Shown here: in pieces, positions 4,378-63,434 of the stretch
How positions within the stretch are numbered: position 1 is the first letter of the stretch
Layout of the letters: each line of letters starts with the position of its first letter
Sequence record: PV730299.1
Strand: one strand, 5' to 3'
DNA length: 64,000 nt
Origin: a phage
Translations under genes and position numbers: made by a program
Notes under the pieces: generated by a model
Database searches by the model: none
The model's input: the letters and a program-made list of their open reading frames with translations, nothing else
What the model was told of the DNA's origin: nothing

Positions 4378-5800
4378 TACTCTTCTCCAACAGGAATGCG
4401 ATGTTTTCGATGTACGCTTTCTGTATCGCATAGACTTCATCCAGTGTGTTGGCCACTTTCTTGTCAATGCGGACTTCTACAAGGCGAGGCAGGAACAAAG
4501 ACTTCATCGCATCATCTGTCTTATCCTGTACGCCATTGGAGAGCACTGCGGCGATCTTGCCAATGTAGTCGCCCTGGTTCTCCCACATATGGCGTCTCAG
4601 CTCATCTGAGATCCCTGATACGCCAACAACAAGCAGGCTGTCGGAAGTTTTACAAATCAGTGAGCCAAAAGTCTTGGCGTGTTTACCCTTCTTGTCAGCC
4701 TCGTTGAAGCCCACGATTTCAAGGTCACACTCAACCTCCATCTTCAGCTTCAGACCTTCAGAAGAAGTCCCATCTTCCCAAGGCATGTCGGCGGCCTTAC
4801 ATATCGTGCCTTCTTCTTTGCGAGCCAGCGCGTCTTTGAAGTGGTCGACGGCTTCGGCAAATGAGTGAACAACGCGGGTTTCTTGAACCTGAACCAGACC
4901 GTCGTCTTCATCAAACAGTTGCTGGATAATATCGAAGCGGCGCTCATACGGGATATCCACGCGCTGGGCGTTGAACCAGTTGTCGTACGGGATAACATCC
5001 CACACCCGGTAGATCACCCGATAACGATCTTCCAGGGGTTCTCCTGTCTGAATCACGCTGTTGAGTTTACCGTTACCGACAGCACGAGGCAGGATGGTAT
5101 TCGACTTGAGGTCAACAACGAGAAGTTCACCATGGAACACACTCTCACCAATCCCCGCATCGTAGATCAGGTCTTTGAACACCAGTGAAAGGTTATCAAC
5201 CGAACCACCTGCGATAAGGGAACCGGAGCGAGAGCGAATCTCAGGCTCTTTATTGTACCGACATATGATGTTGGCGAACATACCGTCTGACTTCAGCTGG
5301 CTGTAGACGCCGCGCTTGAAGTCCATCTTCTTCAGCAGGTCAATCGTCATGTTGTCGTAACGATGATACGGAAGAATGTTGATCAGGCGTCCAGTGCCTC
5401 CGGCGGCGTTGAATGCAGCGTTGATGCCCTTCTCAGCGATACCCGCCTTGATATCACGGTCTAGGATCATCTGAATGAGTTCGTGGTATTGGGGATCCAT
5501 CTTCAGGGCGACAGAGGCCAACAGGGCATCAGCCTTTTGGCCACCGACAAGACGCTGCGCCATCTGGTCGAGGACGTCATAGACTTCGCTGATGTCATCA
5601 GTCTTCTCACGGACGAGCATGCGAGGATACGCGCTGAGCTTCAACTCAGTCCGATAGAACGACGTCATTGGGTCATAGACATACTGCAGGAAGTCTGCCA
5701 AGTCTGGGTTGTTCTTGAATGCTTCGGTCAGCACGGCTTTCTTCGCATTGCTGCCTTTGGTTTCGCGAAGTCGGTGGACTATTTCAAGGATAGGGATCAT
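4370..5800 (-). CDS. ATP-dependent DNA ligase
   Basis: 476 aa; adenylation motif KSDG (QLKSDGMFANI); ATG preceded by GGAGG. Confidence 0.85.
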   Translation of the reverse strand: MIPILEIVHRLRETKGSNAKKAVLTEAFKNNPDLADFLQYVYDPMTSFYRTELKLSAYPRMLVREKTDDISEVYDVLDQMAQRLVGGQKADALLASVALKMDPQYHELIQMILDRDIKAGIAEKGINAAFNAAGGTGRLINILPYHRYDNMTIDLLKKMDFKRGVYSQLKSDGMFANIICRYNKEPEIRSRSGSLIAGGSVDNLSLVFKDLIYDAGIGESVFHGELLVVDLKSNTILPRAVGNGKLNSVIQTGEPLEDRYRVIYRVWDVIPYDNWFNAQRVDIPYERRFDIIQQLFDEDDGLVQVQETRVVHSFAEAVDHFKDALARKEEGTICKAADMPWEDGTSSEGLKLKMEVECDLEIVGFNEADKKGKHAKTFGSLICKTSDSLLVVGVSGISDELRRHMWENQGDYIGKIAAVLSNGVQDKTDDAMKSLFLPRLVEVRIDKKVANTLDEVYAIQKAYIENIAFLLEKSNG

Positions 5801-5808
5801 GTGGTGCC

Positions 5809-5843
5809 TCCAGGGTTATATGTGCTGCTATTATAACCCTGGA
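5809..5843 (-). promoter_or_regulatory. perfect 12-bp stem-loop overlapping the Shine-Dalgarno region of the DNA ligase gene
   Basis: TCCAGGGTTATA-11 nt loop-TATAACCCTGGA; 3' arm on mRNA strand runs into GGAGG SD; no U tract. Confidence 0.4.
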
Positions 5844-5923
5844 GACTTCAATATATTATCAGGGAACGAATCTCAGCACTCAGCGACGGTATACAGAACA
5901 ACCAGTTGATAAACTTTATCATG

Positions 5924-6136
5924 TCACTTCCTCATCAGTGAGAGCAGATTGACCGTAGCCGGGCGCGCATCAGGGGCGTAGAAGACGTCCTGAGAGTGCC
6001 TCTTACAGCACGGGCAATCCTTCGTGGCGATTACACAGGGAGCCTTGTCCACGGCAAATCCAGCGGCTTCGGCTTCCTTCACAGTGGTGAATGGCATGTA
6101 GGCACTTGTGCCCTGCCCTCCGCATGAACATTCCAT
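5924..6136 (-). CDS. small Cys-rich protein
   Basis: 70 aa with CSCGG...C...CPCC cysteine cluster; ORF-track start is TTG, taken here from following ATG with AGAGGAAA RBS. Confidence 0.35.
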   Translation of the reverse strand: MECSCGGQGTSAYMPFTTVKEAEAAGFAVDKAPCVIATKDCPCCKRHSQDVFYAPDARPATVNLLSLMRK

Positions 6137-6248
6137 CAACGTTTCCTCTTAAAGGGGATGACCAGGGCTATGATGAGAAGCATAGCTGTAATCATCCCAC
6201 ATGCTATCAGACCAAAGGCGAACGACTTCAGAACAAACTCAATCAAAT

Positions 6249-7442
6249 TCATAATTTCCTCAATTTGGCTCTAGTGACCTGAGTTTGTTTAACGCCGTTG
6301 TACTCAGTCAGTTCTTTGACACGACCACGGATGATCATATCGCCCTGCAAGAACTCTGTATCCATATAAGAGGTCTTCCAGGTAATTGTATTGCCTTCTG
6401 CTGTTTTGAAAGTAAACAGGTAACTATCACCATATTCATTGGAGAAGAGAAAGGTGCGCTTGTCGAACCTGACTTGCACTTCCAGCATTTCACCGACTTC
6501 ACCCACCCATTTGTTCTCCACCTTGCGGTCAGTACGAGGACGATGGATGTAATCGTAATACTTCTTGGCACCCCAGCGGACTGTGTTGTTATCCTTGATG
6601 AGGTGATAGCCGGGTTCACACATGCGTTTCAGGCGAACATTGAACTCATTAGATTCAGACAGCGCACTGATGAAAAGCTTCATATGGTACATTTCCGACT
6701 CGGCATCTTCACGGTATTCGTGTGCCTTGTTTACGAAATACTCTTCATCGGAACCTGCTTTTGGTTTCTGGTGAGACCGGACATAGCCCAGTACTTTGTC
6801 AAACAGTTCAGACTTGATATCCACGCCTGCCAGCATCACCTGGAAGCATGCGCGCAGGTAACTGTGGGTGTCGACGAAGTGCTCATTTTGGACGCGATAT
6901 ATACCCTCTGGGTCGTCCTCGTCTGGCATGAAGAACTCTTGGATTTCCAGATAGTAAGACATAATCGCGTCAAGGGACTTCTGATGAGGCACATAATGAT
7001 GCATACAGGTGCTACCAATCAGCATCTGGGTATGCGTTTCCTCATTTTCAATCACATACGTGTTCTTGCGACGGATGGCTAGATTGCAATGCTGACACCA
7101 AGAGACGTTCTCTGTCTCGAAGCGACGGATGAAGTCAGGATTGATGTTGTCGGACAGGCGGTTAAGAATAACCTTTGGATATTCGTGATTGAACTGACCG
7201 ATGATCTTCCAGCCACCATAAGAGATGGGGCGGTCAATGCCTTCGCCTTCGAGAGTAACAGGTTTCCACCAGTGAGTAAGGATCCCACCAGTGAAGTCGC
7301 GGGTGTGGGTTTTGAAGGGTTCACCATAAGTCACAGTCGGAAACGGAACACCCAACCTTTCGGCAGTGCGCTCGAGCTTCTTCAGTCGCTCAACTACCAA
7401 CCCTTCATTGTCGATCGGAATATTGAATGTTTTGACGTTCAT
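6249..7442 (-). CDS. hypothetical protein with Cys/His cluster
   Basis: Start moved to MNVK (RBS GAGG); contains CQHC...C.HH cluster; no family recognised. Confidence 0.45.
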   Translation of the reverse strand: MNVKTFNIPIDNEGLVVERLKKLERTAERLGVPFPTVTYGEPFKTHTRDFTGGILTHWWKPVTLEGEGIDRPISYGGWKIIGQFNHEYPKVILNRLSDNINPDFIRRFETENVSWCQHCNLAIRRKNTYVIENEETHTQMLIGSTCMHHYVPHQKSLDAIMSYYLEIQEFFMPDEDDPEGIYRVQNEHFVDTHSYLRACFQVMLAGVDIKSELFDKVLGYVRSHQKPKAGSDEEYFVNKAHEYREDAESEMYHMKLFISALSESNEFNVRLKRMCEPGYHLIKDNNTVRWGAKKYYDYIHRPRTDRKVENKWVGEVGEMLEVQVRFDKRTFLFSNEYGDSYLFTFKTAEGNTITWKTSYMDTEFLQGDMIIRGRVKELTEYNGVKQTQVTRAKLRKL

Positions 7443-9729: not shown

Positions 9730-10059
9730 CTACCCCACCAAAAATTTATTATATTCCTGAGCATTACGCTGCATGATGTCTACAAGGATATCCCCTGACA
9801 CCTCAGTGAACAAGTCATTTTCTTTCAAATTCACAAACATCAGACGCAATGGTTTCTTCAATATATCAGTCACGAAAGACAGGCGGGGTTCGCCGTCCAC
9901 TTCGTTGATGGCCACCTTGCCGAACCGGAATTGAACACCACGGAATTTGCCAGAAGTGATCTTGATGATCGCCAGCTGATCAGCACCAGGGTCGATGATT
10001 GTGTAGTTATTGGGGGAGTCTCCTCCCCCTCCACTGTTATTCGCTTGTGTTGATAACAT
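9730..10059 (-). CDS. hypothetical protein (position equivalent to T4 gene 40)
   Basis: Start moved to MLSTQ... (GGAG upstream); lies between UvsX and helicase genes as gene 40 does in T4. Confidence 0.35.
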   Translation of the reverse strand: MLSTQANNSGGGGDSPNNYTIIDPGADQLAIIKITSGKFRGVQFRFGKVAINEVDGEPRLSFVTDILKKPLRLMFVNLKENDLFTEVSGDILVDIMQRNAQEYNKFLVG

Positions 10060-11122
10060 GGTCCATTTGCTCCAGCATGTTAGCAGGCATAACAGTACCG
10101 TTAGAAACACCGAACATTTTCTTCACGTCATCGGCGAAGTTGACATTCTCCAGCAGCGGATACCAGAAATCATCACCCATCTGACGCTTCTGATATTTCT
10201 TTTCCTTCTCAGGATCGAAACCACCCTTGGCTGTACGCACATACCAGCCGGAAGACGGCATATCAACATAACCCAGAGCACGAGCGATCTCAAGCAGGCC
10301 GCTCCAGCGATCAATACCACCGTTGTACAGTACCGTCACAGGGAGCTTGGCTTTCTCTTTGACATGGCGACCTTTCATGATGCTTATGTTGAAGTTCCAG
10401 CCCAGCAGATCTTTGTCTTCCTTCACCTGAGAACGGGTGATAAACCAGATCAAGTTGGAGGATAAGAAGCCCTGTTTGCCACCTTTGATGTTAGGCTCGG
10501 CATATTGGTTGCCGATCTCATCGTAATAAGAGTTGATCCAAACACACACGAGATTTTTGCTGTTGATTTCGGGAGTCATGACACGCCAGAAGCTGTTAAG
10601 GGCACGGGCGCGGGTCATGTCCTGAGTGTCGTTCCCTTTGATCGCATCTTCAACTTCCTTGGTGGAGGGAAGTTGGCTGATAGAGTCGATGAAGATTATA
10701 ACATGGTCGCCTTTCTTGACTTCCTGTAGGATCTGCAGCAAGCGGATCTTGGTCTGTTCAACGTTGTCGATCGGTACGTACAGGACGCGGTCCATGTCAA
10801 TGCCCATAGAGGTCCAGTAATCGGCGTTGGCACCCTTTTCTGAGTCCGCAAAGACGCAGATAGCATCAGGGAACTTGTCCATGTACGCCTTGACGTCTAC
10901 CAGACCGAACATCGTTTTGAAGGTACGGGAATCACCCACCATCATCTTGATACCGGAGATCAGACCGCCGTCAATACGCCCAGACCATGCGATATCGATC
11001 AGGGGAATACCAGTAGAACAGATGATAGACGGTTCCAGAGCGTCGGATTTGGACAGCACTGAAGCCTGGTCATCGTGTTTCTTAGCAACCTTCAGCATGC
11101 GGTCCATTAATGAACTGGCCAT
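10037..11122 (-). CDS. uvsX: UvsX RecA-like recombinase
   Basis: 361 aa RecA-fold ATPase with P-loop (GDSRTFKT); RBS AGAGGAAG upstream of ATG. Confidence 0.85.
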   Translation of the reverse strand: MASSLMDRMLKVAKKHDDQASVLSKSDALEPSIICSTGIPLIDIAWSGRIDGGLISGIKMMVGDSRTFKTMFGLVDVKAYMDKFPDAICVFADSEKGANADYWTSMGIDMDRVLYVPIDNVEQTKIRLLQILQEVKKGDHVIIFIDSISQLPSTKEVEDAIKGNDTQDMTRARALNSFWRVMTPEINSKNLVCVWINSYYDEIGNQYAEPNIKGGKQGFLSSNLIWFITRSQVKEDKDLLGWNFNISIMKGRHVKEKAKLPVTVLYNGGIDRWSGLLEIARALGYVDMPSSGWYVRTAKGGFDPEKEKKYQKRQMGDDFWYPLLENVNFADDVKKMFGVSNGTVMPANMLEQMDHVINTSE

Positions 11123-11649
11123 TTCACTTCCTCTTTATTGTTGATCGTCGTTAATAATTCTACACCCATAACCTTCTGGGACAAAATGTTAACCGCCTCT
11201 TGGATGCTCTTCAGGGACATTGTCTCAACAAGCGACGATGCGTCATTATGCCGGTCGGTTAGGTACATATTGCGCAGATTGTTGTAGTTCGTGCGGTTGA
11301 TGCACGCAGTGTTCAGTGCTATATTCAGGATATACATCATCTGTTCAATGGTTACATCCTTTGGCATAGCGTGGATGTAATAGATCGAGCCTTCAAAATA
11401 GACGTCTACCAGTTCATCTGGTATCTTGATGCCACCACCGGCATACTCTTCGATCATCCTGAACAGAGACTCTGGTTGCTCGCTGGCGATTTTATGCGTA
11501 ACAGTCGCCGAAAGACCGTCGCCCGGTTTAACAGGCCTGTTGTATTCAGTAAGGAATACATTATGTCCGCCGCCGATGATGTGCTCGGCGAATTTGGAAG
11601 ATGCCTGAGCAGCGTTCTCCGCATGGTATGAAACGACGACTGTAAACAT
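11107..11649 (-). CDS. hypothetical protein
   Basis: 180-aa ORF overlapping neighbours by a few nt (translational coupling); no motif recognised. Confidence 0.45.
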   Translation of the reverse strand: MFTVVVSYHAENAAQASSKFAEHIIGGGHNVFLTEYNRPVKPGDGLSATVTHKIASEQPESLFRMIEEYAGGGIKIPDELVDVYFEGSIYYIHAMPKDVTIEQMMYILNIALNTACINRTNYNNLRNMYLTDRHNDASSLVETMSLKSIQEAVNILSQKVMGVELLTTINNKEEVKWPVH

Positions 11650-12203
11650 TAGAACTCCAGGGTCAGAGGGGTTTCTGCGGACTTATCGTAATCCGCGCCA
11701 CCAGCAGCACGCAGGCGATTGCGATCGTTCTTGCGTTTGTGTGCCAGTATGTAAGTCTCGATGTCGATCTCCATATAAGAACACGCAGACGACAGGAAGA
11801 ACATGAGAGTCTCAACGCAAGGATCGTTCATGAATTGCCCAAGGCGGTACGTAACATTGCGATGCCCTACAACACCCAAAGCAGATGGGGTGAATTCGCG
11901 ATTACTAAGGACTTCAAATTCTTCTTCGATCTCACCTTTGGTGCGGTCCACAAGGATGAAGCACAACATGAAGTGTACCACGTCCACCAGTTCATAAACT
12001 GCGTTCGTATGGTCAAACCCGATGTCGTTGCCATAGACCTTCCAGTCACGGGTGGTTTCATCAAGGAACTCTGCCCACTCACGATAGATAGAGTTGATGA
12101 CTGCGTTCTGACTCCATACATTCTTCCACTCTTCCCCAAAGTAGGCCACGTTAGTGGCCTTTTGGAGTTCGAGCAGGCTTTTGATATGCCCTGCTGTGAT
12201 CAT
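11649..12203 (-). CDS. all-alpha NTP pyrophosphatase (dimeric dUTPase/dCTPase-like, T4 gp56-like, tentative)
   Basis: 184 aa; acidic/aromatic pattern (EEWKNVWSQN..., VDVVHFMLCF) resembling MazG/dimeric-dUTPase enzymes; sits directly upstream of dNMP kinase and TS-family genes. Confidence 0.45.
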   Translation of the reverse strand: MITAGHIKSLLELQKATNVAYFGEEWKNVWSQNAVINSIYREWAEFLDETTRDWKVYGNDIGFDHTNAVYELVDVVHFMLCFILVDRTKGEIEEEFEVLSNREFTPSALGVVGHRNVTYRLGQFMNDPCVETLMFFLSSACSYMEIDIETYILAHKRKNDRNRLRAAGGADYDKSAETPLTLEF

Positions 12204-12769
12204 TTACGTTCTCCGTAGAATTTAACGAACGGCTCCCAACCATCAAATGGATTGAGGAATTCGTAGTCCACTTTCATTTGGTCAATGAAAGCCTCTATAT
12301 CGTCCTCTATGATACCAGCACGGTCGGCCTTTGAAATACGGGTGATAGGACATTTCGTACTCAGCGCCCATTCATATTCCTGAGGGGTACGCAGATCGCT
12401 CACGATATAATGGACGTGGGGGTTCTGCTCTACCAGAGGAAGCTGGAAGCGCTTGAAGAATGCCAGGAACAGATCGGGTTGTACGTAACGCAAGCCCGTA
12501 TCGCTGCCTAGATGAAGCCAGATCTGCCGTGGAGTTAAGCCCTTGGGGTTATCAGGGTGCACGTAAGGAACGTCCTTCACGGCATCCTCTACCTCCGCTG
12601 GGAGCCATGGGTAGATGTAGTTGGCTACACGGCGCAGTTCATCCGAGAACGAAAGGCGCTGGATGTCCATATCACCCTGTAAGTGGTGATAACTGATCAG
12701 GGACTCCAAACAGAAGTCCTTACCGGAGCGCTTGCGCCCCGTAAAGAATTCAAGATTTGGATACATCAT
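12200..12769 (-). CDS. deoxynucleoside monophosphate kinase (T4 gp1-like)
   Basis: 189 aa; P-loop FTGRKRSGKD matches the T4 gp1 GVKRSGKD signature; ATGA overlap with neighbour. Confidence 0.7.
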   Translation of the reverse strand: MMYPNLEFFTGRKRSGKDFCLESLISYHHLQGDMDIQRLSFSDELRRVANYIYPWLPAEVEDAVKDVPYVHPDNPKGLTPRQIWLHLGSDTGLRYVQPDLFLAFFKRFQLPLVEQNPHVHYIVSDLRTPQEYEWALSTKCPITRISKADRAGIIEDDIEAFIDQMKVDYEFLNPFDGWEPFVKFYGERK

Positions 12770-13812
12770 ACTACACCTTCCAGGAACTTAGGATCAATGA
12801 TCTTGCGGTCAACCGGGGAATGGGTGAGCGCGGTGTTCAAGCCATGATCCTGAATCAGGTCCAGGTTAATGAGCTTTTCGTTCAGTTTGCAGTGCAGACA
12901 GTACGCCATCTGTACAATCAGGCCGCGATCCGCATCGTATTCCTTCAGGTGAGCAACCACAGTTTCCCACGGGCTACCGATATCACAGTGATGAAGCACA
13001 CCAGTGAACAGATTGCGGATATGGTTCTGGTTGGTCACGTTCGTGAAGTGAATCATGGAGTTGATGAACCCAGCTTCTACTTTGGTGTCCTTCGTGATCT
13101 TGCCCAGCTGCTTCTGGCTGACTTCATTGTTGTAGTAATGAAGATTGTTAGAGAATAGCTTGTACTGACCGACATCAACACCCAGCACCCGAGCAATCAC
13201 TTCCTGAAGAATAGAGAACTCAATGAAGTTAATTGAACTCATCCCCCACAGAACATCCTGTGAGCGATTGATGACCGTCAGGTTCAGACGACCTTCAACG
13301 ATGGCGAATAACAGAGCCAGGTTACACACCATGTCCTTGGTCTTCGCTTCGCCGCTCTCGCTGAACTTCGCCAGACCAGCATCCGAATCTAGAGCCGGGT
13401 CATAGATGGTGAGGTACGCCTGGCGAGTGTTTGGGTTCTTACGCAGGCGGTTGATAACGCTATCCAGCTGGTCATGGGCGTACAGACGCGGACCATAAGC
13501 AGCTCGCCATGTTACCCCATCATCCGAAAAGTTAGCAGCGCGAGGCAATACGCGTGACAGGAACTTTATGTCGTTGCGGCCTGACAACACCCAGAAGGTC
13601 TCGCCGATGGCAGCGATAGCCGATGAGTTGCGACCTTCAACGGAGAGCCAGCGGTCACGGATGTCGGCGACGGTTATGGTCACGCCATCAAGGAAGCGGG
13701 TGCTATCAGTATTGATTTCAGCATTACCAGGATCAGATTCGATCCCGAATTCACGGATAGCCAAGACAGCCTGCTTCAGCATGTCATTGTTGTTAATTGC
13801 TTTGATTTCCAT
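12766..13812 (-). CDS. thymidylate synthase-family enzyme (pyrimidine hydroxymethylase/methylase homolog)
   Basis: 348 aa; TS-fold signatures: DMVCNLALLF (aligns to TS LPPCHAL catalytic Cys), RQAYLTIYDP, NRSQDVLWGMSSINFIEFSIL; about 90-aa C-terminal extension; stop/start overlap (TGATG) with kinase gene. Confidence 0.7.
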   Translation of the reverse strand: MEIKAINNNDMLKQAVLAIREFGIESDPGNAEINTDSTRFLDGVTITVADIRDRWLSVEGRNSSAIAAIGETFWVLSGRNDIKFLSRVLPRAANFSDDGVTWRAAYGPRLYAHDQLDSVINRLRKNPNTRQAYLTIYDPALDSDAGLAKFSESGEAKTKDMVCNLALLFAIVEGRLNLTVINRSQDVLWGMSSINFIEFSILQEVIARVLGVDVGQYKLFSNNLHYYNNEVSQKQLGKITKDTKVEAGFINSMIHFTNVTNQNHIRNLFTGVLHHCDIGSPWETVVAHLKEYDADRGLIVQMAYCLHCKLNEKLINLDLIQDHGLNTALTHSPVDRKIIDPKFLEGVV

Positions 13813-14471
13813 CAGATACTCCCAAAATCACGACAGAGGAATGCCATCACAGCCTGGTCTACTGTTAGGCCGTGAGACTTCATCATACCCGCAGCCACCG
13901 TAGGGAACAAGCCTTTATGTCGTTGACGATGGTCATGAACTCTCTCCCACTTCTCGACCACCAGACTTTCATTGAAGTCCACACCACCGTTACGTGATTT
14001 AACGCGGGAGATACACGTTTCAAGGGGAGTGTCCATAAAGAGCACAACCAATTCACGTGGTGGGCGTGTCAGACGGGGGATCCAAGAACTCAATAATGTG
14101 GATGGAATGATACCTTCGAAAATCACATCATATTTCAAGTATTCTGGTTGGTCAGCAATAGACAACGCGAACAACATCTGCTCAGTGTCCTTCAGGGAAT
14201 CAACCCCCTTGGACTTCGACTTGTCATATTTACCGATACAGACCACGTTGAACGAAGGACAGACAGTCAGCATGACCTTGCCGTTATGGGTCACGACATA
14301 CGCCTGAGGATCCCTCTCCGCCAGCTGAGACGGCACAGTGGATTTACCGCTACCATTGGAGCCTTTGACGTAGTAGATTTGCCCTCGTGCTGGGTAGATC
14401 CCCTTTACGACGGGTGGTTTAAAGAATGTGTGGACGGGGCGCTTCATCAGCCCCTTCAGGGAGTAGGACAT
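13812..14471 (-). CDS. P-loop nucleotide/nucleoside kinase
   Basis: 219 aa; Walker A GSNGSGKST and LID-like DTPLETCISRVKSR. Confidence 0.55.
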   Translation of the reverse strand: MSYSLKGLMKRPVHTFFKPPVVKGIYPARGQIYYVKGSNGSGKSTVPSQLAERDPQAYVVTHNGKVMLTVCPSFNVVCIGKYDKSKSKGVDSLKDTEQMLFALSIADQPEYLKYDVIFEGIIPSTLLSSWIPRLTRPPRELVVLFMDTPLETCISRVKSRNGGVDFNESLVVEKWERVHDHRQRHKGLFPTVAAGMMKSHGLTVDQAVMAFLCRDFGSI

Positions 14472-14492
14472 AAACTGCTCCGATAAACAAAA

Positions 14493-14515
14493 GGAGCTGC
14501 TATTATAGCAGCCCC
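14493..14515 (-). terminator. rho-independent terminator
   Basis: About 10-bp stem (GGGGCTGCTAT / ATAGCAGCTCC, one G-U) followed by TTTTGTTTATC; TATAAT within loop; directly upstream of kinase gene RBS. Confidence 0.55.
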
Positions 14516-14546
14516 TTCATCTATTGAACAGTTTCTGAACTTAAAT

Positions 14547-22233: not shown

Positions 22234-23040
22234 ATGAATTTACCATCATTGCCCAGAACAGAAAAGACATATAAAAGCGACTTTTGGCCTACTGTGATCA
22301 AATATCGCGCCTTTACTGCGGGGCAACAAACTTTATTACTTCAGGTGTCAGATCCGCAAACGCCGATTGAAGAACGCGCGGCCATGATGGAGAGTCTCTT
22401 TAGCGAGTGTGTAAATGCAGGCGCACCTTTCAGTAAACTGCCAATCGGCGTTGTTGAGGAAGTGTTCATCCGCATGCGCATGATCTCCATCGGTGAATTG
22501 ATGAAGATTCGTTATAAGTGCAATAATCAGATTGAAGAAACGATCGATCTGGGAGATGGTCAAGAAAAGCACCAGATGGTTCCCTGTGAGCAGGAACTGA
22601 CTCTACCTATCCCGTTGAACAATGTCAAATGCATTGCTCAGGACGGCTTCCGGGAAACATTTGACCTGCCAGGTGGATATCACCTCAAGATGCGCCAACC
22701 TTCCTTCTCGGACGCTACGGCACTGTCTGATGCTGCAAGTGTTGAGATGATGCTGGCCACCTTTATCGACTGTCTGTACGATGATGACGGTCAGGTGTGG
22801 AAGGTTGAGAATCCTGAAGAAATCGGAATCACTCCAGAAGAGGCTACTGAGCGCCGCCGTGTGAAAGAAGCGTTTGTTGAGTGGGTGAAGGATAACATCG
22901 AATCAGATGTTATTGACAGCATTACGAAGAACTTCTTCCACAAAATACCGCGCATCCACTACAAGAGTTCGATCAAGTGTCCGAAATGTGGTAAGGAGCA
23001 CAAAATCGAATTCAATAGTATTAATGAAATTTTCATTTAA
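22234..23040 (+). CDS. hypothetical protein with C-terminal zinc ribbon (possible baseplate-associated)
   Basis: Start moved to MNLPSL (GGAG RBS); C-terminal CPKCGKEH; first gene of plus-strand block ending with gp5-like and gp25-like genes. Confidence 0.45.
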   Translation: MNLPSLPRTEKTYKSDFWPTVIKYRAFTAGQQTLLLQVSDPQTPIEERAAMMESLFSECVNAGAPFSKLPIGVVEEVFIRMRMISIGELMKIRYKCNNQIEETIDLGDGQEKHQMVPCEQELTLPIPLNNVKCIAQDGFRETFDLPGGYHLKMRQPSFSDATALSDAASVEMMLATFIDCLYDDDGQVWKVENPEEIGITPEEATERRRVKEAFVEWVKDNIESDVIDSITKNFFHKIPRIHYKSSIKCPKCGKEHKIEFNSINEIFI

Positions 23041-23189
23041 TGTTTGAAACTGATTTATTATCCTACTTCGTGATGTGTGATGAATTGAAGTTACACGGCT
23101 ATAGCATATTTGAAATCAACGAGTCGATGCCATGGCATCTTGACTTGTTAACCGAAGCCCTCAAGGTCAGGTTGTCTAAGAAACAGTAA
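23040..23189 (+). CDS. small ORF (49 aa)
   Basis: ATG overlapping stop of upstream gene (TAATG); ends just before a strong terminator. Confidence 0.25.
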   Translation: MFETDLLSYFVMCDELKLHGYSIFEINESMPWHLDLLTEALKVRLSKKQ

Positions 23190-23213
23190 TCCCGCTTCGG
23201 CGGGATTTTTATT
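23188..23213 (+). terminator. rho-independent terminator
   Basis: ATCCCGC-ttcg-GCGGGAT followed by TTTTTATT, after plus-strand genes ending at 23040/23189. Confidence 0.65.
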
Positions 23214-23510
23214 GGCTTAACTGCAAAATAGGTTAACACGCGTTCTCTTTACCTAAAATTGTTATAATGGGCTTGTTCCCGAGTCATTTGTTGGTGTTTG
23301 TCTGTTTTGAATCAGATTGTCAGTAAAATACCATTTTTCAAGGAGTGTTCTGGGGTGTACAGTTATTGCCTCGCCCTTATGCCTCCATGGCATTGGAATG
23401 GTGCTGCCCGCATAGGGCGGTTTGATGAGCGAAGCGAATAGGATCGAATAAAACAAATAAAATGAACGGAAGCAGAGCTTCCTATAGTATATAAGGCAAA
23501 ATCAGCTGCG

Positions 23511-23518
23511 CATAAATA
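23511..23518 (+). promoter_or_regulatory. late promoter-like box, variant CATAAATA
   Basis: 34 nt upstream of gp5-like ATG, same spacing as the exact boxes. Confidence 0.35.
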
Positions 23519-23552
23519 CCTTCAAATCCTTGTTTGACAACCGGAACTCAAT

Positions 23553-25163
23553 ATGTTAGACAATATGAGATGGTTTTACGGCACCGTTGAAGATGTCAAC
23601 GATCCAGACCAAAACGGGCGCGTCGCCGTCCGCATATATGGCGTACACACCGACGATCCCGTCCTCCTGCCTACAGACAAACTCCCATGGGCGAAGGTAC
23701 TGATGCCTGCTTCTAACGCCTCCTCTGCTGGTTTAGGTTGGTCTCCAACGGGTATCATTCCTGGTACTGAGGTTATGGGGTTCGCCCTTGACGAAGCATA
23801 CCAGAATTTACGCATCACCTGGACTTGGACTGGTTCAAGCCCTACTGATGGCGCCGACACAAACCCGCTGGCTCTCGGGCAGGTCGTTCAATCTGTAGAA
23901 CGTCAGGCGTACAACGCTGTCACTGACGTTCCTGTGAAACAAGAAGACGAACCACAACCAGATCCACAACCACCTGTTGGTGGGTATGATCCAGAGAAGT
24001 GGATGACAATCGCTCGTGGCGAATTGGGTATCAAGGAGTACGCCGGAAAGTTCAATAACAACCCGCGCATTATAGAATATCACAAGACAACCTCCCTTGG
24101 TGCTTCTGAAGATGAAGTGTCGTGGTGTGCGGCGTTCGTGGGTTGGGTTATGATACAGGCTGGATACACGTCTACACGCTCCGCTCTTGCCCGATCTTAC
24201 CTTACATGGGGCACTGCACTGTCAGCACCACAATATGGCGCTATCGTAGTCTTCCGGCGTGGTAACAACCCTACATTTGGACACGTAGCGTTTGTGCAGA
24301 AGTTCGATGCAAACTATGTCTGGTGTATTGGTGGCAACCAATCCGATTCAGTGAAGGTCAGTCGTTTCAGACGTTCTTCGGTCTTGGGATATCGTTGGCC
24401 TGGTCCTGCTAACACAGCCACAGCCGCGCCTGCGCAGCAGAATGGTAAATGGTCAGAACCTATCCCAGATCGTACTCCAAAGGAACAACCGACTCCGGCT
24501 CCTACTGGGCGAGTACAGGATATTGACAACACTGGAGAAACCATGGTTCCGGCTGCGGGTGGCTCTAAATACCCGTACAATAACGTCATGGTGTCCCGAG
24601 CTGGGCATATTATGGAAGTGGATGACACCCCTGGTGGTGAACGTCTTCATTGGATGCATAAGTCTGGGTCTTACAAGCAAATGTTGCCGGATGGTGATGT
24701 GGTCAACAAGTCCGTCAAAGACCACTATGACCTGACGATGTTCAACAAGCGTTATTATGTCGGCGGGGACCACAACCTGACGGTCAAAGGAACTGAAGTT
24801 CAGCGCAAGACAGGTGAGGTCTATCATTTGCATTCCAACAATTACTCCAACGTGGTTGCGGGCACAGCGCTGATGAAATTCAGTGACCTAGCCGAGTTTC
24901 AAGCGCAGAATATTCTGCGCATTATCTGCGAGACTCTGGAGGTCGGTGGGACATTGAAGGTTCCTAAGATTCTAACGACTGAGATCATCGCTGACAAACT
25001 GACTGTCGCTCAGACGATCAATGGTAACATCATATATGCCGAAGGTGCTGGTCGCGCTTCTTCTCTGTCAGGTGCAACCCCTGCATCCCCTACGGGTCCG
25101 GGTGAGATTGACATCAAGGCAGAATTAAAAGACAATGGTGGTAATTTCGGCACCAAAGAGTAA
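23553..25163 (+). CDS. baseplate central spike/hub protein with CHAP peptidase domain (gp5-like)
   Basis: 536 aa; N-terminal OB-like YGTVEDVNDPDQNGRVAVRIYGVHTD; central Cys/His amidase pair (SWCAAFVGW ... FGHVAFV) typical of CHAP/NlpC-P60; C-terminal beta-helix-like region. Confidence 0.7.
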   Translation: MLDNMRWFYGTVEDVNDPDQNGRVAVRIYGVHTDDPVLLPTDKLPWAKVLMPASNASSAGLGWSPTGIIPGTEVMGFALDEAYQNLRITWTWTGSSPTDGADTNPLALGQVVQSVERQAYNAVTDVPVKQEDEPQPDPQPPVGGYDPEKWMTIARGELGIKEYAGKFNNNPRIIEYHKTTSLGASEDEVSWCAAFVGWVMIQAGYTSTRSALARSYLTWGTALSAPQYGAIVVFRRGNNPTFGHVAFVQKFDANYVWCIGGNQSDSVKVSRFRRSSVLGYRWPGPANTATAAPAQQNGKWSEPIPDRTPKEQPTPAPTGRVQDIDNTGETMVPAAGGSKYPYNNVMVSRAGHIMEVDDTPGGERLHWMHKSGSYKQMLPDGDVVNKSVKDHYDLTMFNKRYYVGGDHNLTVKGTEVQRKTGEVYHLHSNNYSNVVAGTALMKFSDLAEFQAQNILRIICETLEVGGTLKVPKILTTEIIADKLTVAQTINGNIIYAEGAGRASSLSGATPASPTGPGEIDIKAELKDNGGNFGTKE

Positions 25164-54531: not shown

Positions 54532-56733
54532 TTAGATTTTGATTTCTTTCTCTGTCAGTTCGGCAGTGACCTTGTACTTCACGCCATCCACTTCAACTTC
54601 CATGGTGGACTCTTCCAAGTCGAGGTCGGTGAACCAGCCATGGCCAGCAACGATACCATAAACCACTTTAGACAGCGTCTTGTTCAGGGCACGGACTTCG
54701 GTGATGGCCGCCTTGGCAGCAGCGTCGATCCAGTTTTCGATCAGATGTTTCTGTAAGGCTTCAGGCACGGCAGTGATCATAGGAGACTTCACGAATGCTT
54801 CGTACTCCTTCAGCGCATTGGCGATGAACAAGTCACCAGCATTGAGTTTCTTGTTCTCGGCAATCTTCTTCTGTACCGCTGCGATAGACGGTAGAGAAGA
54901 AGCGCCAGCGATCTTCACGTTCAGCTCACGGCTCATGTAGAAGTCGGTAGACTCTTTGGTCTCAGTCTTCGGTGAGAATCCGTAATCGCGGATGCCGTAG
55001 GAGGACAGGAACTCGGCCGCCTCAGCGCCGTACTGTACTGCCAGGCCTTTGGCGTTACCCTTACCAACCAGGGCGTCTCGATAGAACTTCAGCACCTTCT
55101 GCTTGCCTTTCAGGGCTTCCAGACGGACATTATCCGCAAAGAACTGAGCAGCACTGATGTTCTTGACCATGGCGCGGTTGACCAGTGGTACACTTTCCAG
55201 GTTCAGGACAAACACTTCTGGACCACCAAACACGTGGACACCCATTTCGATCAGCTTATGCACGACTTCGATATCAGCCTTGAACGGCAGAGTCTTCACG
55301 TTAATGATACCGTCTTTGACGATCGTGTAGTTGCGCCACTGGAAAGTATCCAGTTCTTCAGGCAGGCCGAACTTCTTCTGTGCGAATTCAGGCACAGCCA
55401 CAGTACCGTGTTGAATTGTACGCACACTGATGTTCGGGCGCTCGGAGTTATAGACCAAATCGCTGATTGGCACAACACCCAGGTCGTTGGTAGGTTCGAA
55501 CGTCGGGTTCCACTCTTCGTGCTCTGCCAGCTTGAGAGCCAGGGCTTTACGCTCTTCTTTGGACTGAGCATTCGCGATCTGTTCTGCCAGCTTGTCTTCG
55601 GTGTCGTCGGTTTTCTGCACAGTACCGCGCCCGATACTCTTATAGGAGAACATCGGATGCTTGGTAGCAACAGGCACACCAGCTTCAGCCAGGTACGTCA
55701 GCACATCAACAACGGTGGTCGCGTCTTCGGCCGGAACCAGGTCATAGTCAATACCGTCAACGCCGCGCAGCTGGTCGTCAACAATCGCCTGAACCAGATC
55801 GTTCTTGATGTTGGAGTAGTCCTGCTTGGTGAAGCAGTTGCTGTACTGTTTGATGAAGCGAACGTCACCCGTTTTCTTCAGTGCAGCCCACACCAGGTCC
55901 GCGTCCATGATGTGTACGCCGTAGAACGCCAGCACGTATGCCGCCTGGATATCCGTCAGACTATCCATCTGGTCGATCATGTTAGGGTTTACAACCCACA
56001 GCTTGGTGACGCTCTCAGGGATGCTCACATAGCCGACCGGGTGAGAGTCATCGTCCTGCACCGCCAGTACTGTTGCCACACCGTTTTCGACGTAGATGGC
56101 ATGGGTGTAGATGACTGGGACATCAACTTTCACCTTCGGCACTGATGACTTCAGCACGTTTTCCAGTTCGGTCTGGTATTCGGTCTGACCTTCGGCAAAC
56201 ACATGAGTCGCGCCAGAGCGCTCGGACATCAGAGCCAGCAGTTCGCGGTTACAGTGCCAGCCGTATTCGATGAAAGTAATGTTATCGAACACAGAAGGCA
56301 AGGTTTCGGCGACGGCCAGGATTTCGTTTGAGCGCCAGCAGTTGTCATAACCATCGGTCATGAATGCCAGGTTGTTGACGTAACCAGGTTTCTTCAGGTC
56401 ACGCGCAGTATCCATCGCCAGTTTCAACGGCTCAACGAAGCCAGTACATCCGGACGGTTGCAGGAAGCGATCGATCAGTTTGTTCAGCTCGCTCAGGTCA
56501 GACGCAGCACTAACCTGGCGGCCAGCGAACACAGTACCAAAGTCGCCTTTGGAGGAGAAATACAGAACGCTCACAGTGTCTTCCGGTTTCACCAGGGAAG
56601 GCAGGTTCTCCTTCAGATGCTTACGGACTTCAGGGAGCGCACGGTACATAGAGCCGGAAATGTCTACAACGATTACATGGTTGGACGGGGCAGCAGTCGC
56701 AACCGCATTCTTAAATTCTAATGATTCAATCAT
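54532..56733 (-). CDS. von Willebrand factor A (vWA) domain protein
   Basis: Start set at MIESLEF; MIDAS-like VIVVDISGSM near N-terminus followed by vWA-like fold; about 500-aa C-terminal region without recognised motifs. Confidence 0.6.
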   Translation of the reverse strand: MIESLEFKNAVATAAPSNHVIVVDISGSMYRALPEVRKHLKENLPSLVKPEDTVSVLYFSSKGDFGTVFAGRQVSAASDLSELNKLIDRFLQPSGCTGFVEPLKLAMDTARDLKKPGYVNNLAFMTDGYDNCWRSNEILAVAETLPSVFDNITFIEYGWHCNRELLALMSERSGATHVFAEGQTEYQTELENVLKSSVPKVKVDVPVIYTHAIYVENGVATVLAVQDDDSHPVGYVSIPESVTKLWVVNPNMIDQMDSLTDIQAAYVLAFYGVHIMDADLVWAALKKTGDVRFIKQYSNCFTKQDYSNIKNDLVQAIVDDQLRGVDGIDYDLVPAEDATTVVDVLTYLAEAGVPVATKHPMFSYKSIGRGTVQKTDDTEDKLAEQIANAQSKEERKALALKLAEHEEWNPTFEPTNDLGVVPISDLVYNSERPNISVRTIQHGTVAVPEFAQKKFGLPEELDTFQWRNYTIVKDGIINVKTLPFKADIEVVHKLIEMGVHVFGGPEVFVLNLESVPLVNRAMVKNISAAQFFADNVRLEALKGKQKVLKFYRDALVGKGNAKGLAVQYGAEAAEFLSSYGIRDYGFSPKTETKESTDFYMSRELNVKIAGASSLPSIAAVQKKIAENKKLNAGDLFIANALKEYEAFVKSPMITAVPEALQKHLIENWIDAAAKAAITEVRALNKTLSKVVYGIVAGHGWFTDLDLEESTMEVEVDGVKYKVTAELTEKEIKI

Positions 56734-56941
56734 TGTTCTCTTCGCCTTGTGCGTAAGGGTTAAGTTCAGACTCATCAGCGGCTTCGATGCGCGTCTTTAC
56801 AGAGTCCAGCATATTGTTGATAAATTCACGAGACTGCTCCAGCTGAGCCAAGAGCACATCCTTTGGAGCATAGTTCTGAATGCAAGCCGGAATACTTTCA
56901 GACGTCGCCTTCAGGTCGGTAAAACATTCTTTCAGTATCAT
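56726..56941 (-). CDS. hypothetical acidic protein
   Basis: 71-aa ORF overlapping vWA gene start by 8 nt. Confidence 0.35.
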   Translation of the reverse strand: MILKECFTDLKATSESIPACIQNYAPKDVLLAQLEQSREFINNMLDSVKTRIEAADESELNPYAQGEENND

Positions 56942-57043: not shown

Positions 57044-58708
57044 TCAGATTTGTGAGGCCAGTTCTGTCACCAGAGGAGCGGCACGAACACGCGCATCTTC
57101 CAGTGTTTGAGTATTGAAGAACTCGCCATCACGATACACCAGCTGGTGCTGGTTGTCGGCGTCTTGCACCTGATCAAAGGTGATACCGTCAACCAACACT
57201 AGTTTACCCTGAGAGTCTTTAATGACTTTAAGGAAACCACGCGCAGACTTTTTAGTCCCGCCTTTATCGGTCTTCGGCTCTTTGAAGATCTCACGGAATT
57301 CGCCGTTCACTTTACCAGCCGTGGCTTTCACCGCCGTGCCAGTACTGTCACGGGTGTTCATCTGGTAGGTGTAGGAACCGATACCGAACACCACGTTGAT
57401 GGAAGCGAAGTTCCGGTCAGCCAGACGGCTAAAGATCTGGTCTTCACGCGACAGGGTGATAGAATCACCGTAGATCAGGCCGATGTGCTCATCCAACAGG
57501 AAGTGCCCAGTTTCAGTCTGGGTGCCACCAAAGATCTCCCACAGGCGCTGGATAGAGCCGACCGCTTCTGAACGGCTGATGATATTACGGTCATCTGCCA
57601 TCAGAGAGTTGATCGTGCCTTCGCCTGTAATCAGGTGGTAGGTGTTCGTCTCTTCGATGTGAATAACTTCTGTGTCGCTAGACACACCGCTAATGTTCAG
57701 CGTGGCACGGTCTTTGAACCCCTCGATGCGGTAGCCGCCAACAATGTGTACAGGGTCGCCCGAGTCGGGGCGGATCACGACTTTACCATTGCGCGCCATG
57801 ATAATGTCTTTCAGGCGAGGGAGATAGTCGTCGATGACCTGCCAGTAATCCCATGCATCAGACACGATGCTGACGGTGCCATCAGGATACACGTCCTGCA
57901 CCAGGCGGCGGAAGGTTTCGAATTCGCCATCCTTCGTGCCCATACACATCACGGCGTGTTCGGTAGCCGCAACAGAACCAGCAACGACATAATCTTCGTC
58001 GATGTCTGCGCCATAATACTCTTCTACGAAGTCTAGGGCAGGGTTGGTATCGGTGCCTTTGAAGAACACCAGATGACCGGAACCGGAAGACGCCGCGTCA
58101 TGCCACCCGCTCATACCACGGAAGGAGAAGTCGTGGCCTTGGTAGTCGATGAACCAATGGTCCGGCGACACGCCTGTAGCGAGGGCAGCTTTCACCATCA
58201 GTGCCTTGTAATGCAGAGCTATGGTGGCGTTCGTCATCGGCTTCCATATCTCAGAGCTGAACACGGTCTCCAGATAGTTGGTCAGCCAGTAGAACTCCGG
58301 CAGGGTATTGAACATCACATACACCGGAACGCCATACGGGCACATGGTGCCTTCAGGCAGCGCACGGACTTCGATAGGAAGGTAGCCGAGGTCATGCAGG
58401 GCTTCAATATGCTCTGTGCCGACGCGGCCTGGACCCAGGACTTTGTTCATGCGACGGGCATACTTCTTCAGCACCTTGGCCTTCGGGCACTGGAAGAATG
58501 CTTCGTCAAACAGTTCGTGGAACCAGGTCATGAAGCCCTGGATGCCCCAGACCACCACTCCGTTCTTCGGCAGGTGAGAGTTGAACAGTTTGTTAGAGCG
58601 CGGAGTTCCGTTGGAGAACACCAGCTCACTGCCTTCAGGGAACTGATAGATGTGCCCCGATTTGTAGAAGTCGATTGCATGGATTGGGTCTAAGTGGCGC
58701 ATGCTCAT
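57044..58708 (-). CDS. nicotinamide phosphoribosyltransferase-family protein (NadV/Namat-like)
   Basis: 554 aa; NAMPT-family pattern along full length; ATGA overlap with Prs-family gene; terminator downstream. Confidence 0.8.
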   Translation of the reverse strand: MSMRHLDPIHAIDFYKSGHIYQFPEGSELVFSNGTPRSNKLFNSHLPKNGVVVWGIQGFMTWFHELFDEAFFQCPKAKVLKKYARRMNKVLGPGRVGTEHIEALHDLGYLPIEVRALPEGTMCPYGVPVYVMFNTLPEFYWLTNYLETVFSSEIWKPMTNATIALHYKALMVKAALATGVSPDHWFIDYQGHDFSFRGMSGWHDAASSGSGHLVFFKGTDTNPALDFVEEYYGADIDEDYVVAGSVAATEHAVMCMGTKDGEFETFRRLVQDVYPDGTVSIVSDAWDYWQVIDDYLPRLKDIIMARNGKVVIRPDSGDPVHIVGGYRIEGFKDRATLNISGVSSDTEVIHIEETNTYHLITGEGTINSLMADDRNIISRSEAVGSIQRLWEIFGGTQTETGHFLLDEHIGLIYGDSITLSREDQIFSRLADRNFASINVVFGIGSYTYQMNTRDSTGTAVKATAGKVNGEFREIFKEPKTDKGGTKKSARGFLKVIKDSQGKLVLVDGITFDQVQDADNQHQLVYRDGEFFNTQTLEDARVRAAPLVTELASQI

Positions 58709-59559
58709 TTTACACGTCCTGTATTTTCAGTTTTGAAAGGAAGCCCGTCGGCGGTGATGTTCTCCCACCAGACAGTGTCGGCATACACAGCATCATAGAT
58801 CCCGTCGAAAACAGAGAGACCTTTGCTGAAGATGCCATGGGTAACGAAGAGTGTCATGTGCTTAGGCTTGTGCTTCTGAAGCTCTTTGCCTAACTCAACG
58901 AAAGTGCGCCCGCCGTCGCAGATATCATCAACCACAACCAGATAGCGGTCTTTGATCAGTTCAGGGTTCGTAATACTCACCCCAATGATCTCACCAGTCT
59001 TGGTGTCACGGTTCTTGTGACCGTAGACAATAGGAACACCGTCCAACGACAGGCTGAGGGCTTCGGTCTTCTTAGCCGCGCCGCCGTCAGGGGCCACCAA
59101 CACAGCGTTGTTCCCACGGATGAACCAACCCAGATACTGACGCACGATGTAATCTTGCGGGACAACATGGACGTTGTTGATCAGAGAAGACACAACATGG
59201 CTGTGAGGATCTTTGATCGCCACGCGGTCAAAGTTCATGCTATTGATGAACTCAGCCGCCCACTTCACAGACAGAGGCTCACCGAAGTCACAATGGCGGT
59301 CCTGGCGAGCATACGGGAAATAAGGGATATACGCATGGAATGTCGTCAGACGGTCCACGTTACCCAGACCACGAACGGCGTTTACCAGAAGCGCCAGCTC
59401 AATGAAGTCAGCCGATGATTTGATGTGAGCATCAATCACCACGTTCTGAACGTGGCCGATAGGGATACCAGACTTTTGAATCTTGATATGTTCCTCACCA
59501 CCTGGGAAGGTGAAGTGTTTGTAGAACACATCTTGGTCGTTCAATTTCAAACGAAACAT
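58705..59559 (-). CDS. ribose-phosphate pyrophosphokinase-family protein (Prs/Adps-like)
   Basis: 284 aa; phosphoribosyl-binding block VVVDDICDGGRTF and N-terminal Prs-like domain; GAGG RBS. Confidence 0.8.
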   Translation of the reverse strand: MFRLKLNDQDVFYKHFTFPGGEEHIKIQKSGIPIGHVQNVVIDAHIKSSADFIELALLVNAVRGLGNVDRLTTFHAYIPYFPYARQDRHCDFGEPLSVKWAAEFINSMNFDRVAIKDPHSHVVSSLINNVHVVPQDYIVRQYLGWFIRGNNAVLVAPDGGAAKKTEALSLSLDGVPIVYGHKNRDTKTGEIIGVSITNPELIKDRYLVVVDDICDGGRTFVELGKELQKHKPKHMTLFVTHGIFSKGLSVFDGIYDAVYADTVWWENITADGLPFKTENTGRVK

Positions 59560-63209: not shown

Positions 63210-63434
63210 TCAGACGATCTTACCGCCGTCACAAGGCCGAGTATCACCGGAGTTGTATGCCAACATCCCCTGCATCAACAAACGTCTTGGCCCAGAAACT
63301 GATTTCTGTTTCCTCAACGTACTACAAAACCGAGTAGTGCCTGGGTAAGGAGTGTACACGAGACGTCCTTCCATACGGGCTTTCAGAAGAAACTCATCAG
63401 TCGCTTTACGCAGTTTGAACAATTTCCAGCTCAT
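63210..63434 (-). CDS. hypothetical basic protein
   Basis: 74-aa ORF directly downstream of the NUMOD3-containing ORF. Confidence 0.3.
   Translation of the reverse strand: MSWKLFKLRKATDEFLLKARMEGRLVYTPYPGTTRFCSTLRKQKSVSGPRRLLMQGMLAYNSGDTRPCDGGKIV

Follow-up and report, generated by a model that had tools for sequence, protein, structure and literature searches.

Within a 64,000-nucleotide (nt) stretch of phage DNA (PV730299.1; hereafter 'the window', meaning the whole stretch analysed), four overlapping minus-strand genes at positions 11649–14471 form, with a probability that we put at about 90%, a thymidine-hypermodification module of the kind carried by the Ackermannviridae phage ViI. The module joins three enzymes that would replace thymidine triphosphate (dTTP) in the nucleotide pool by 5-hydroxymethyl-deoxyuridine triphosphate (5-hmdUTP) to the first enzyme that would act on the DNA after replication. 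By analogy with relatives, the product expected in this phage is 5-(2-aminoethoxy)methyl-deoxyuridine (5-NeOmdU), at about 40% of thymidine (T). The system is already known and has been worked out experimentally in close relatives (Kutter 2011; Lee 2018, 2021), and the window holds an orthologous copy of the ViI module and no new variant.

An initial annotation of this DNA had described four stop/start-coupled genes at 11649–14471 and proposed a pyrimidine (hyper)modification operon. The four open reading frames (ORFs) span that interval exactly, all with an ATG start, and their junctions are TGATG (1-nt overlap), ATGA (4 nt) and ATGA (4 nt). They encode the 5-hydroxymethyl-deoxyuridine (5-hmdU) DNA kinase (5-HMUDK; 13812–14471, 219 amino acids (aa)), a predicted deoxyuridine monophosphate (dUMP) hydroxymethylase of the thymidylate synthase (TS) superfamily (12766–13812, 348 aa), a T4 gp1-family deoxynucleoside monophosphate (dNMP) kinase (12200–12769, 189 aa) and an all-alpha deoxynucleoside triphosphate (dNTP) pyrophosphatase (dimeric-dUTPase/MazG-like, T4 gp56 family; 11649–12203, 184 aa). 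The family assignments made initially for these proteins were upheld by profile searches (PF18748, E = 4e-109; PF00303, E = 5e-17; phrog_139, E = 1e-47; PF08761, E = 6e-9), and the operon reading was borne out by a gene order equal to that of ViI orf63/65/66/67.

Megablast matched the block to 265 phage records, essentially all from Ackermannviridae, and coverage was ≥80% in 128; because the block is kept across these records, we regard the four ORFs as real genes and not as chance ones. Its best matches are the Escherichia phages RPN242, LHE287 and ZQ1 (98–99% identical), followed by Shigella phage AG3 (91.5%). The whole window is collinear with positions 51,091–113,415 of Escherichia phage vB_EcoM-ZQ1 (Aglimvirinae) at ~98% identity, and it derives from an Ackermannviridae phage (Aglimvirinae, Agtrevirus-like). 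ViI (Vi01, NC_015296) and CBA120 share with it the four genes, their order, strand and overlaps, and the neighbouring genes for uvsX, gp41 helicase and gp2 end protector. Protein identities between the window and ViI orf63/65/66/67 are 61/91/77/89%. ViI and CBA120 differ in belonging to Cvivirinae/Kuttervirus rather than Aglimvirinae, and in the diverged pyrophosphatase (61%).

The 219-aa P-loop protein is a 5-hmdU DNA kinase, and its predicted activity, judged from sequence, is phosphorylation of the 5-CH2OH group of 5-hmdU in DNA to give 5-phosphomethyl-deoxyuridine (5-PmdU). It scored 363 bits on PF18748 (HMUDK_HMUD1), for which the cut-off is 27, and its residues 14–208 cover positions 1–195 of the 196-position profile. 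Over 219 aa it is 89% identical to ViI YP_004327432 (orf00067 = gp67; the 'gp' numbering of Lee et al. follows the ViI orf numbers), which occupies the syntenic position, and its Walker A motif GSNGSGKST (aa 37–45) is identical in gp67. The ViI protein is a 5-hmdU DNA kinase that phosphorylates 5-hmdU in DNA in vitro (PMC8989533). A sequence search against solved structures found no homologue of the window kinase, returning generic P-loop/ABC matches only (E > 0.008). One option offered by the initial annotation, a TS-homologue hydroxymethylase paired with a P-loop kinase for 5-hmdU, is thus supported by the PF18748 match and gp67 orthology. Its label 'P-loop nucleotide kinase' stands as to the P-loop kinase and falls as to a free-nucleotide substrate, since the orthologue gp67 uses 5-hmdU in polymerized DNA.

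Names for this kinase vary among public records. It is labelled 'terminase small subunit' in the RefSeq records of Vi01, AG3, SKML-39, P46FS4 and MK-13 and also in PHROG 800, and 'thymidylate kinase' in other records. We rejected the terminase label, an error passed on from record to record; ViI has its actual small terminase elsewhere (Vi01_162c). In ZQ1 the kinase is annotated in a truncated 174-aa form, and the Pfam match requires the 219-aa form.

The TS homologue belongs to Thymidylat_synt (PF00303) and is 77% identical to ViI orf00066 (thyA). At 348 aa, against 264 for E. coli ThyA and 246 for T4 gp42, it is indeed, as first noted, some 90 aa longer than canonical TS or gp42, and the extra ~90 residues are explained by a helical C-terminal domain of the type seen in the cytidine monophosphate (CMP) hydroxymethylase MilA. 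An AlphaFold2 (AF2) model of the protein (mean predicted local distance difference test score (pLDDT) 93) places this domain from ~240 to 348, a segment of ~110 aa for which E. coli TS has no counterpart. MilA is also the closest solved relative by sequence (phmmer E = 1e-18, versus 2e-6 for E. coli TS), and a profile of 25 homologues widened the difference (E = 5e-49 for MilA, 1e-20 for E. coli TS). With the AF2 model as a Foldseek query, MilA, the sole fold match over the full length, aligned with a query-normalized TM-score (TMq) of 0.74, and TS over ~250 columns with a TMq of ~0.55. MilA itself lacks the TS C-terminal tail and has in its place an additional C-terminal domain of five helices (PMC5175136). 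The window protein thus resembles MilA of Streptomyces rimofaciens (PDB 5B6D/5JNH) in its all-helical extra domain and missing TS tail. The two are ~21% identical and differ at the substrate-contacting positions, which are Lys133/Ala176/Asp186 (ribose, cytosine) in MilA and Arg130/Ser184/Asn195 (deoxyribose, uracil) here.

We mapped catalytic residues in an alignment of the 25 homologues with T4 gp42 and E. coli ThyA (the ThyA sequence checked for length and key positions), which recovered the published gp42 numbering C148/D179. Residues of the window protein correspond to those of TS as follows: C163 to C146, E71 to E58, Y106 to Y94, R183/S184/D186 to R166/S167/D169, N195 to N177 and H225/Y227 to H207/Y209. 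Invariant in all 25 homologues are C163, E71, Y106, R183, D186, H225 and Y227. Among the residues that would select uracil and deoxyribose, N195 is present in 25/25 homologues and S184 and R130 in 21/25 each, whereas the cytosine enzymes carry Asp at the position equivalent to N195 (gp42 D179, MilA D186). According to the substrate rule from the MilA study, an Arg/Ser/Asn triad specifies deoxyribose plus uracil (PMC5175136); Arg130/Ser184/Asn195 fit this rule, so the substrate reads as dUMP. The initial statement that the substrate cannot be read from the sequence was, in this respect, too cautious. We predict from the sequence and the model that the protein is a dUMP hydroxymethylase, which would catalyse dUMP + methylene-tetrahydrofolate (CH2-THF) + H2O → 5-hmdUMP + THF. 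Hydroxymethylation is suggested by the missing TS tail, by the nearest relatives and by the biology of close relatives.

The initial annotation had also singled out a Cys-Asn pair (DMVCNLALLF) where TS has Cys-His, and the motif is found at aa 160–169. Cys-Asn occurs in 23 of the 25 homologues and is a family trait; taken alone it is uninformative, because T4 gp42 and MilA carry Cys-Thr and likewise no His. Identity with canonical ThyA was rejected: the top score on the NCBIfam ThyA equivalogs was 63.7 bits where 327 are required (cut-offs overall, 108–427), the Cys-His pair is missing and the C-terminal tail is replaced by the helical domain. The same observations speak against a conventional thymidylate synthase, the outcome that had been named as refuting the modification hypothesis. 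Loss of TS Trp80 (Ala92 here) was considered as a hydroxymethylase signature and dropped, as T4 gp42 retains the Trp. The database label 'thymidylate synthase' for this predicted dUMP hydroxymethylase is a persistent error.

The 189-aa protein falls in phrog_139 ('deoxynucleoside monophosphate kinase'), the PHROG to which T4 gp1 also belongs (E = 2e-65), and it is 91% identical to ViI orf00065 ('dnk'). Its P-loop GRKRSGKD (aa 11–18) aligns with GVKRSGKD of gp1. Searches returned no Pfam match above cut-off and no PDB match by phmmer at E ≤ 1, and BLASTP against gp1 was marginal, giving a 21-aa alignment at E = 0.003 and a weak collinear one at E = 0.41. From its family we predict that it would convert 5-hmdUMP to 5-hmdUDP.

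The 184-aa pyrophosphatase matched PF08761 (dUTPase_2) with 36.7 bits against a cut-off of 22.9 and phrog_173 with E = 3e-40, a PHROG that includes T4 gp56. It carries the ExxE (E42, E45) and ExxD (E71, D74) motifs, which align with those of the Campylobacter jejuni dimeric dUTPase 1W2Y; in the all-alpha dUTPase family, the residues of these motifs bind metal. Pairwise BLASTP to T4 gp1 and gp56 is marginal throughout (E = 0.003–0.005), and because of this the terms 'gp1-like' and 'gp56-like' rest on the PHROG family comparison. Its counterpart in ViI is orf00063 (dUTPase), 61% identical. Against the NCBIfam dUTPase equivalog the protein scored 29.6 bits, far below the cut-off of 300, so dUTPase specificity cannot be transferred to it from that model. 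We consider it a putative dUTPase that would supply dUMP and that probably acts also as a dTTPase, excluding dTTP from the pool. A dTTPase/dUTPase role was proposed for the CBA120 enzyme by Kutter 2011 (PMC3184105). 'dUTP diphosphatase' is a common database label within the block.

These assignments suggest a pathway that starts in the nucleotide pool. The pyrophosphatase would hydrolyse dUTP, and probably dTTP, to the monophosphate, which would feed dUMP into the pathway and bar dTTP. Judging from homology, residues and fold, Cys163 of the TS homologue would attack C6 of dUMP and the methylene group would be taken from 5,10-methylene-THF; on the same grounds, the exocyclic methylene would then be hydrated instead of reduced, yielding 5-hmdUMP. 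The dNMP kinase would produce 5-hmdUDP and a host nucleoside diphosphate (NDP) kinase 5-hmdUTP, which the phage polymerase would insert for T. In the DNA, the 5-hmdU DNA kinase would move the gamma-phosphate of ATP onto 5-hmdU to give 5-PmdU, as ViI gp67 does in vitro. Two further steps, demonstrated for ViI and attributed to this phage via ZQ1, would depend on genes outside the window: a gp247-type serine:DNA transferase would generate O-serinyl-T, and a gp226-type pyridoxal phosphate (PLP) decarboxylase would convert this to 5-NeOmdU. Leftover 5-hmdU would become plain thymine by a step as yet undescribed. The modified DNA would be resistant to many restriction endonucleases.

Published chemistry in relatives agrees with this pathway. 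Virion DNA of ViI, CBA6, CBA120 and Vibrio phage 1.255.O contains a 301-Da nucleoside, 5-NeOmdU, at ~40% of T (PMC5889632), which verifies in relatives the non-canonical base predicted by the initial annotation. AG3, LIMEstone and SKML-39 are 5-HMUDK phages listed as likely 5-NeOmdU carriers (PMC5889632), and AG3 is the Shigella phage 91.5% identical to the block. In ViI, gp67 and gp243 phosphorylate 5-hmdU DNA, gp247 transfers serine and gp226 decarboxylates the product to 5-NeOmdU (PMC8989533). CBA120 did not incorporate 3H-thymidine, and its TS groups with known dUMP hydroxymethylases (PMC3184105); its adjacent dNMP kinase and dUTPase were discussed in the same 2011 study. The same gene set has been tabulated for PP35, an Aglimvirinae phage (PMC6336734), and the pathway genes are summarized in a 2024 review of Ackermannviridae (PMC11721090).

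Several observations weigh against reading the block as a complete ViI-type module with the ViI end product. A tblastn search of the window with ViI gp160, gp161, gp226, gp243 and gp247 found none of them. As they are missing from the window, the case for the later enzymes in this phage rests on the ~98%-identical ZQ1, which encodes homologues of gp160, gp226, gp243 and gp247 at 82, 91, 47 and 89% identity; the second kinase is thus only 47% identical to gp243. Within the block, conservation is lowest for the pyrophosphatase, whose substrates are a matter of conjecture. The published assays that we found cover the DNA-level enzymes only, with none on the TS homologue, the dNMP kinase or the pyrophosphatase. 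Finally, our literature search found no nucleoside analysis for any Agtrevirus or other Aglimvirinae phage, and the end product proposed here is therefore drawn from data on Kuttervirus and the Vibrio relative.

Some of these points would also suit an alternative in which the entry through 5-hmdU is the same and the end product differs, with 5-hmdU or 5-PmdU being kept or the side chain being other than aminoethoxymethyl. No liquid chromatography–mass spectrometry (LC-MS) data were found for Aglimvirinae in the literature, the later enzymes are not visible within the 64-kb window, and the diverged second kinase of ZQ1 sits inside a 532-aa 'homing endonuclease' ORF. Moreover, tailoring enzymes vary in related phage groups, as between M6 and PaMx11 (PMC5889632). 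The enzymes that fix the chemistry, however, gp247 and gp226, are 89% and 91% identical between ZQ1 and ViI, and 1.255.O, a far more distant relative, makes the same 301-Da nucleoside (PMC5889632). We consider a different end product distinctly unlikely.

Two further readings would dispense with modified thymidine altogether. The initial annotation had raised a T4-like route, in which a dCTPase, a deoxycytidine monophosphate (dCMP) hydroxymethylase and a hydroxymethyl-dCMP kinase lead to DNA with 5-hydroxymethyl-deoxycytidine (hmdC). The resemblance to T4 gp56/gp42/gp1 is real: the same three enzyme families do the same jobs of depleting a canonical dNTP, hydroxymethylating a monophosphate and phosphorylating it, the pyrophosphatase and dNMP kinase share PHROG 173 and 139 with gp56 and gp1, and hhalign picks up a relationship between the TS homologue and gp42 (97%, E = 1e-11). 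The T4 genes, by contrast, are scattered where those of the window are coupled, the base is cytosine (gp42 Asp179) rather than uracil (Asn195), and the TS homologue here is ~100 aa longer, with its helical C-terminal domain. We rejected the protein as a gp42-type dCMP hydroxymethylase, given that Asn195 aligns with gp42 D179 and that the match is distant and confined to 124 columns. Because the base-specifying residue is Asn195 in all 25 aligned homologues, where gp42 has D179 and MilA D186, the cytosine route is excluded for practical purposes, and we rate it as exceedingly improbable. A 5-hmdU-specific DNA kinase sits in the same operon, CBA120 shows no hmdC substitution according to Kutter 2011 (PMC3184105), and the virion DNA of relatives has normal deoxycytidine and modified T (PMC5889632).

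Most GenBank annotations instead imply ordinary nucleotide salvage, with a conventional TS, a dUTPase, thymidylate or nucleoside kinases and canonical DNA. Many records are labelled 'thymidylate synthase', 'dUTP diphosphatase' and 'thymidylate kinase' in keeping with this, and the TS homologue does lie in PF00303. Yet the ThyA equivalogs were missed widely (64 bits versus 327), a MilA-like helical domain takes the place of the TS C-terminal tail, the kinase matches PF18748 at 363 bits, and the experimental data from ViI and CBA120 speak for modification. Salvage is therefore a very improbable account of the block, and the ViI-type hypermodification module is the reading that we retain.

Bacillus phages with 5-hydroxymethyluracil, such as SPO1 and SP8, use a pool route of dUMP hydroxymethylase, dNMP kinase, dTTPase/dUTPase, dCMP deaminase and dTMPase (PMC8989533), and ZQ1 also encodes a dCMP deaminase and a 5'(3')-deoxyribonucleotidase. 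The logic by which 5-hmdUTP replaces dTTP is the same in SPO1 and SP8 as here. SPO1-type phages, however, end at 5-hmdU and have no 5-HMUDK, whereas in the window the DNA kinase gene immediately precedes the hydroxymethylase gene and is coupled to it, and 5-hmdU would be only an intermediate. In M6, PaMx11, PhiW-14 and SP10, the same kinase family opens the post-replicative chemistry via 5-PmdU, alongside a dUMP hydroxymethylase gene (PMC5889632). Their tailoring enzymes adjoin the kinase, whereas those of the Ackermannviridae are encoded at scattered sites in the genome; the side chains are also different.

Related gene groups were seen elsewhere. The JGI metagenome contig Ga0376445_000038 carries, at 4428–7065, a trio of dUTPase_2, P-loop kinase (AAA_28) and a long TS homologue that shares 48% identity with the window protein across 69% of its length. 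A dCTP deaminase is encoded close by, and there is no HMUDK match on record within 6 kb. This arrangement suggests that the pool-level module can move between genomes without the DNA-level enzymes. Ralstonia phage RP13 has its gene for the TS homologue beside that for DNA polymerase. Neither case alters the assignment of the block.

As a discovery the block carries little weight: earlier papers describe its role and the base (5-NeOmdU, ~40% of T) in ViI and CBA120 and list the same genes for AG3 and PP35. Its practical value lies in the prediction that DNA of this phage withstands numerous restriction enzymes and may cause anomalies when sequenced or cloned. Persistent mislabels in databases also come to light, with a predicted dUMP hydroxymethylase filed as 'thymidylate synthase' and a 5-hmdU DNA kinase filed as 'terminase small subunit' or 'thymidylate kinase'. 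Residual novelty is confined to the accessories, namely an ACT-like protein encoded next to the block, the specificity of the pyrophosphatase and the diverged second kinase.

Coupling extends downstream past the four genes, into the gene for the ACT-like protein and then uvsX, neither of which was mentioned in the initial annotation. The ACT-like gene (11107–11649, minus strand; 180 aa) overlaps the stop of the pyrophosphatase gene by 1 nt (TAATG), and its overlap with uvsX (10037–11122) is 16 nt. Its product matched PF24021 (ACT_phage, E = 1e-78). Homologues formed 14 clusters only, all of them PF24021, and the few with source names come from Ackermannviridae phages. An AF2 model is confident for an N-terminal beta-alpha-beta-beta-alpha-beta fold (ferredoxin/ACT-like) and not for the C-terminal helices; the best Foldseek match, a weak one (E = 2e-3), was the ACT-domain protein 1ZPV, and neither these results nor the homologue search pointed to a function. 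The ACT-like protein possibly belongs to the module. We think it unlikely that the uncharacterized pieces taken together, that is, the 61%-identical pyrophosphatase, the coupled ACT-like protein and the diverged second kinase, hide something undescribed. One possibility would be that the enzymes for dTTP exclusion and 5-hmdUTP synthesis have in the ACT-like protein a regulator or partner that senses small molecules; another, that this protein takes part in turning 5-hmdU back into thymine. As a third possibility, Aglimvirinae might make a side chain other than 5-NeOmdU.

At the other end of the block, a terminator-like hairpin (14490–14518, minus strand) lies between a 278-aa gene and the kinase gene. 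It consists of a GC-rich 13-bp stem followed by the T-run TTTTGTTT, and its loop and adjacent stem read CTATAATAG, which includes a −10-like TATAAT hexamer. From its sequence the hairpin probably marks the 5' boundary of the transcription unit. Transcription may terminate at it, and the TATAAT may be part of a promoter. Terminator-like sites in the region were at chance level (8 versus 7.1 in shuffled sequences), and because their count does not exceed that in shuffles, the support for this hairpin is its exceptional stem length alone. Sigma-70-like sites in the region were not clearly above shuffles either (16 versus 11 ± 3.3), with none just upstream of the kinase gene.

In ZQ1, the gp243 homologue makes up the C-terminal ~300 aa of the 532-aa ORF (22876–24474, 'putative homing endonuclease'), which may be an endonuclease–kinase fusion or a merged gene call. 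A separate NUMOD3 homing-endonuclease-like ORF (63431–64000, minus strand) is cut by the end of the window and sits where ZQ1 continues directly into its homologue of gp160 (aGPT-Pplase1); the last ~790 bases of the window are unmatched in ZQ1. This ORF is a mobile insertion beside a hypermodification gene.

At 57044–59559 (minus strand), the window has two overlapping genes that are missing from the otherwise collinear ZQ1. They encode a 554-aa phosphoribosyltransferase of the NAPRTase/NAMPT family (PF04095, E = 3e-32) and a 284-aa ribose-phosphate pyrophosphokinase-like protein (PF00156, PF13793). NAMPT and RPPK genes are variable in Agtrevirus according to the 2024 review of Ackermannviridae (PMC11721090), and the pair probably serves to replenish NAD+ against defences that deplete it. 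PADLOC reported nothing for this pair or for the neighbouring unknown genes. Two large ORFs are conserved in ZQ1: a 672-aa ORF at 61072–63090 (minus strand), for which no Pfam match was found, and a 747-aa ORF at 54532–56775 (minus strand), whose N-terminal part matches the von Willebrand A domain (PF00092, E = 1e-6).

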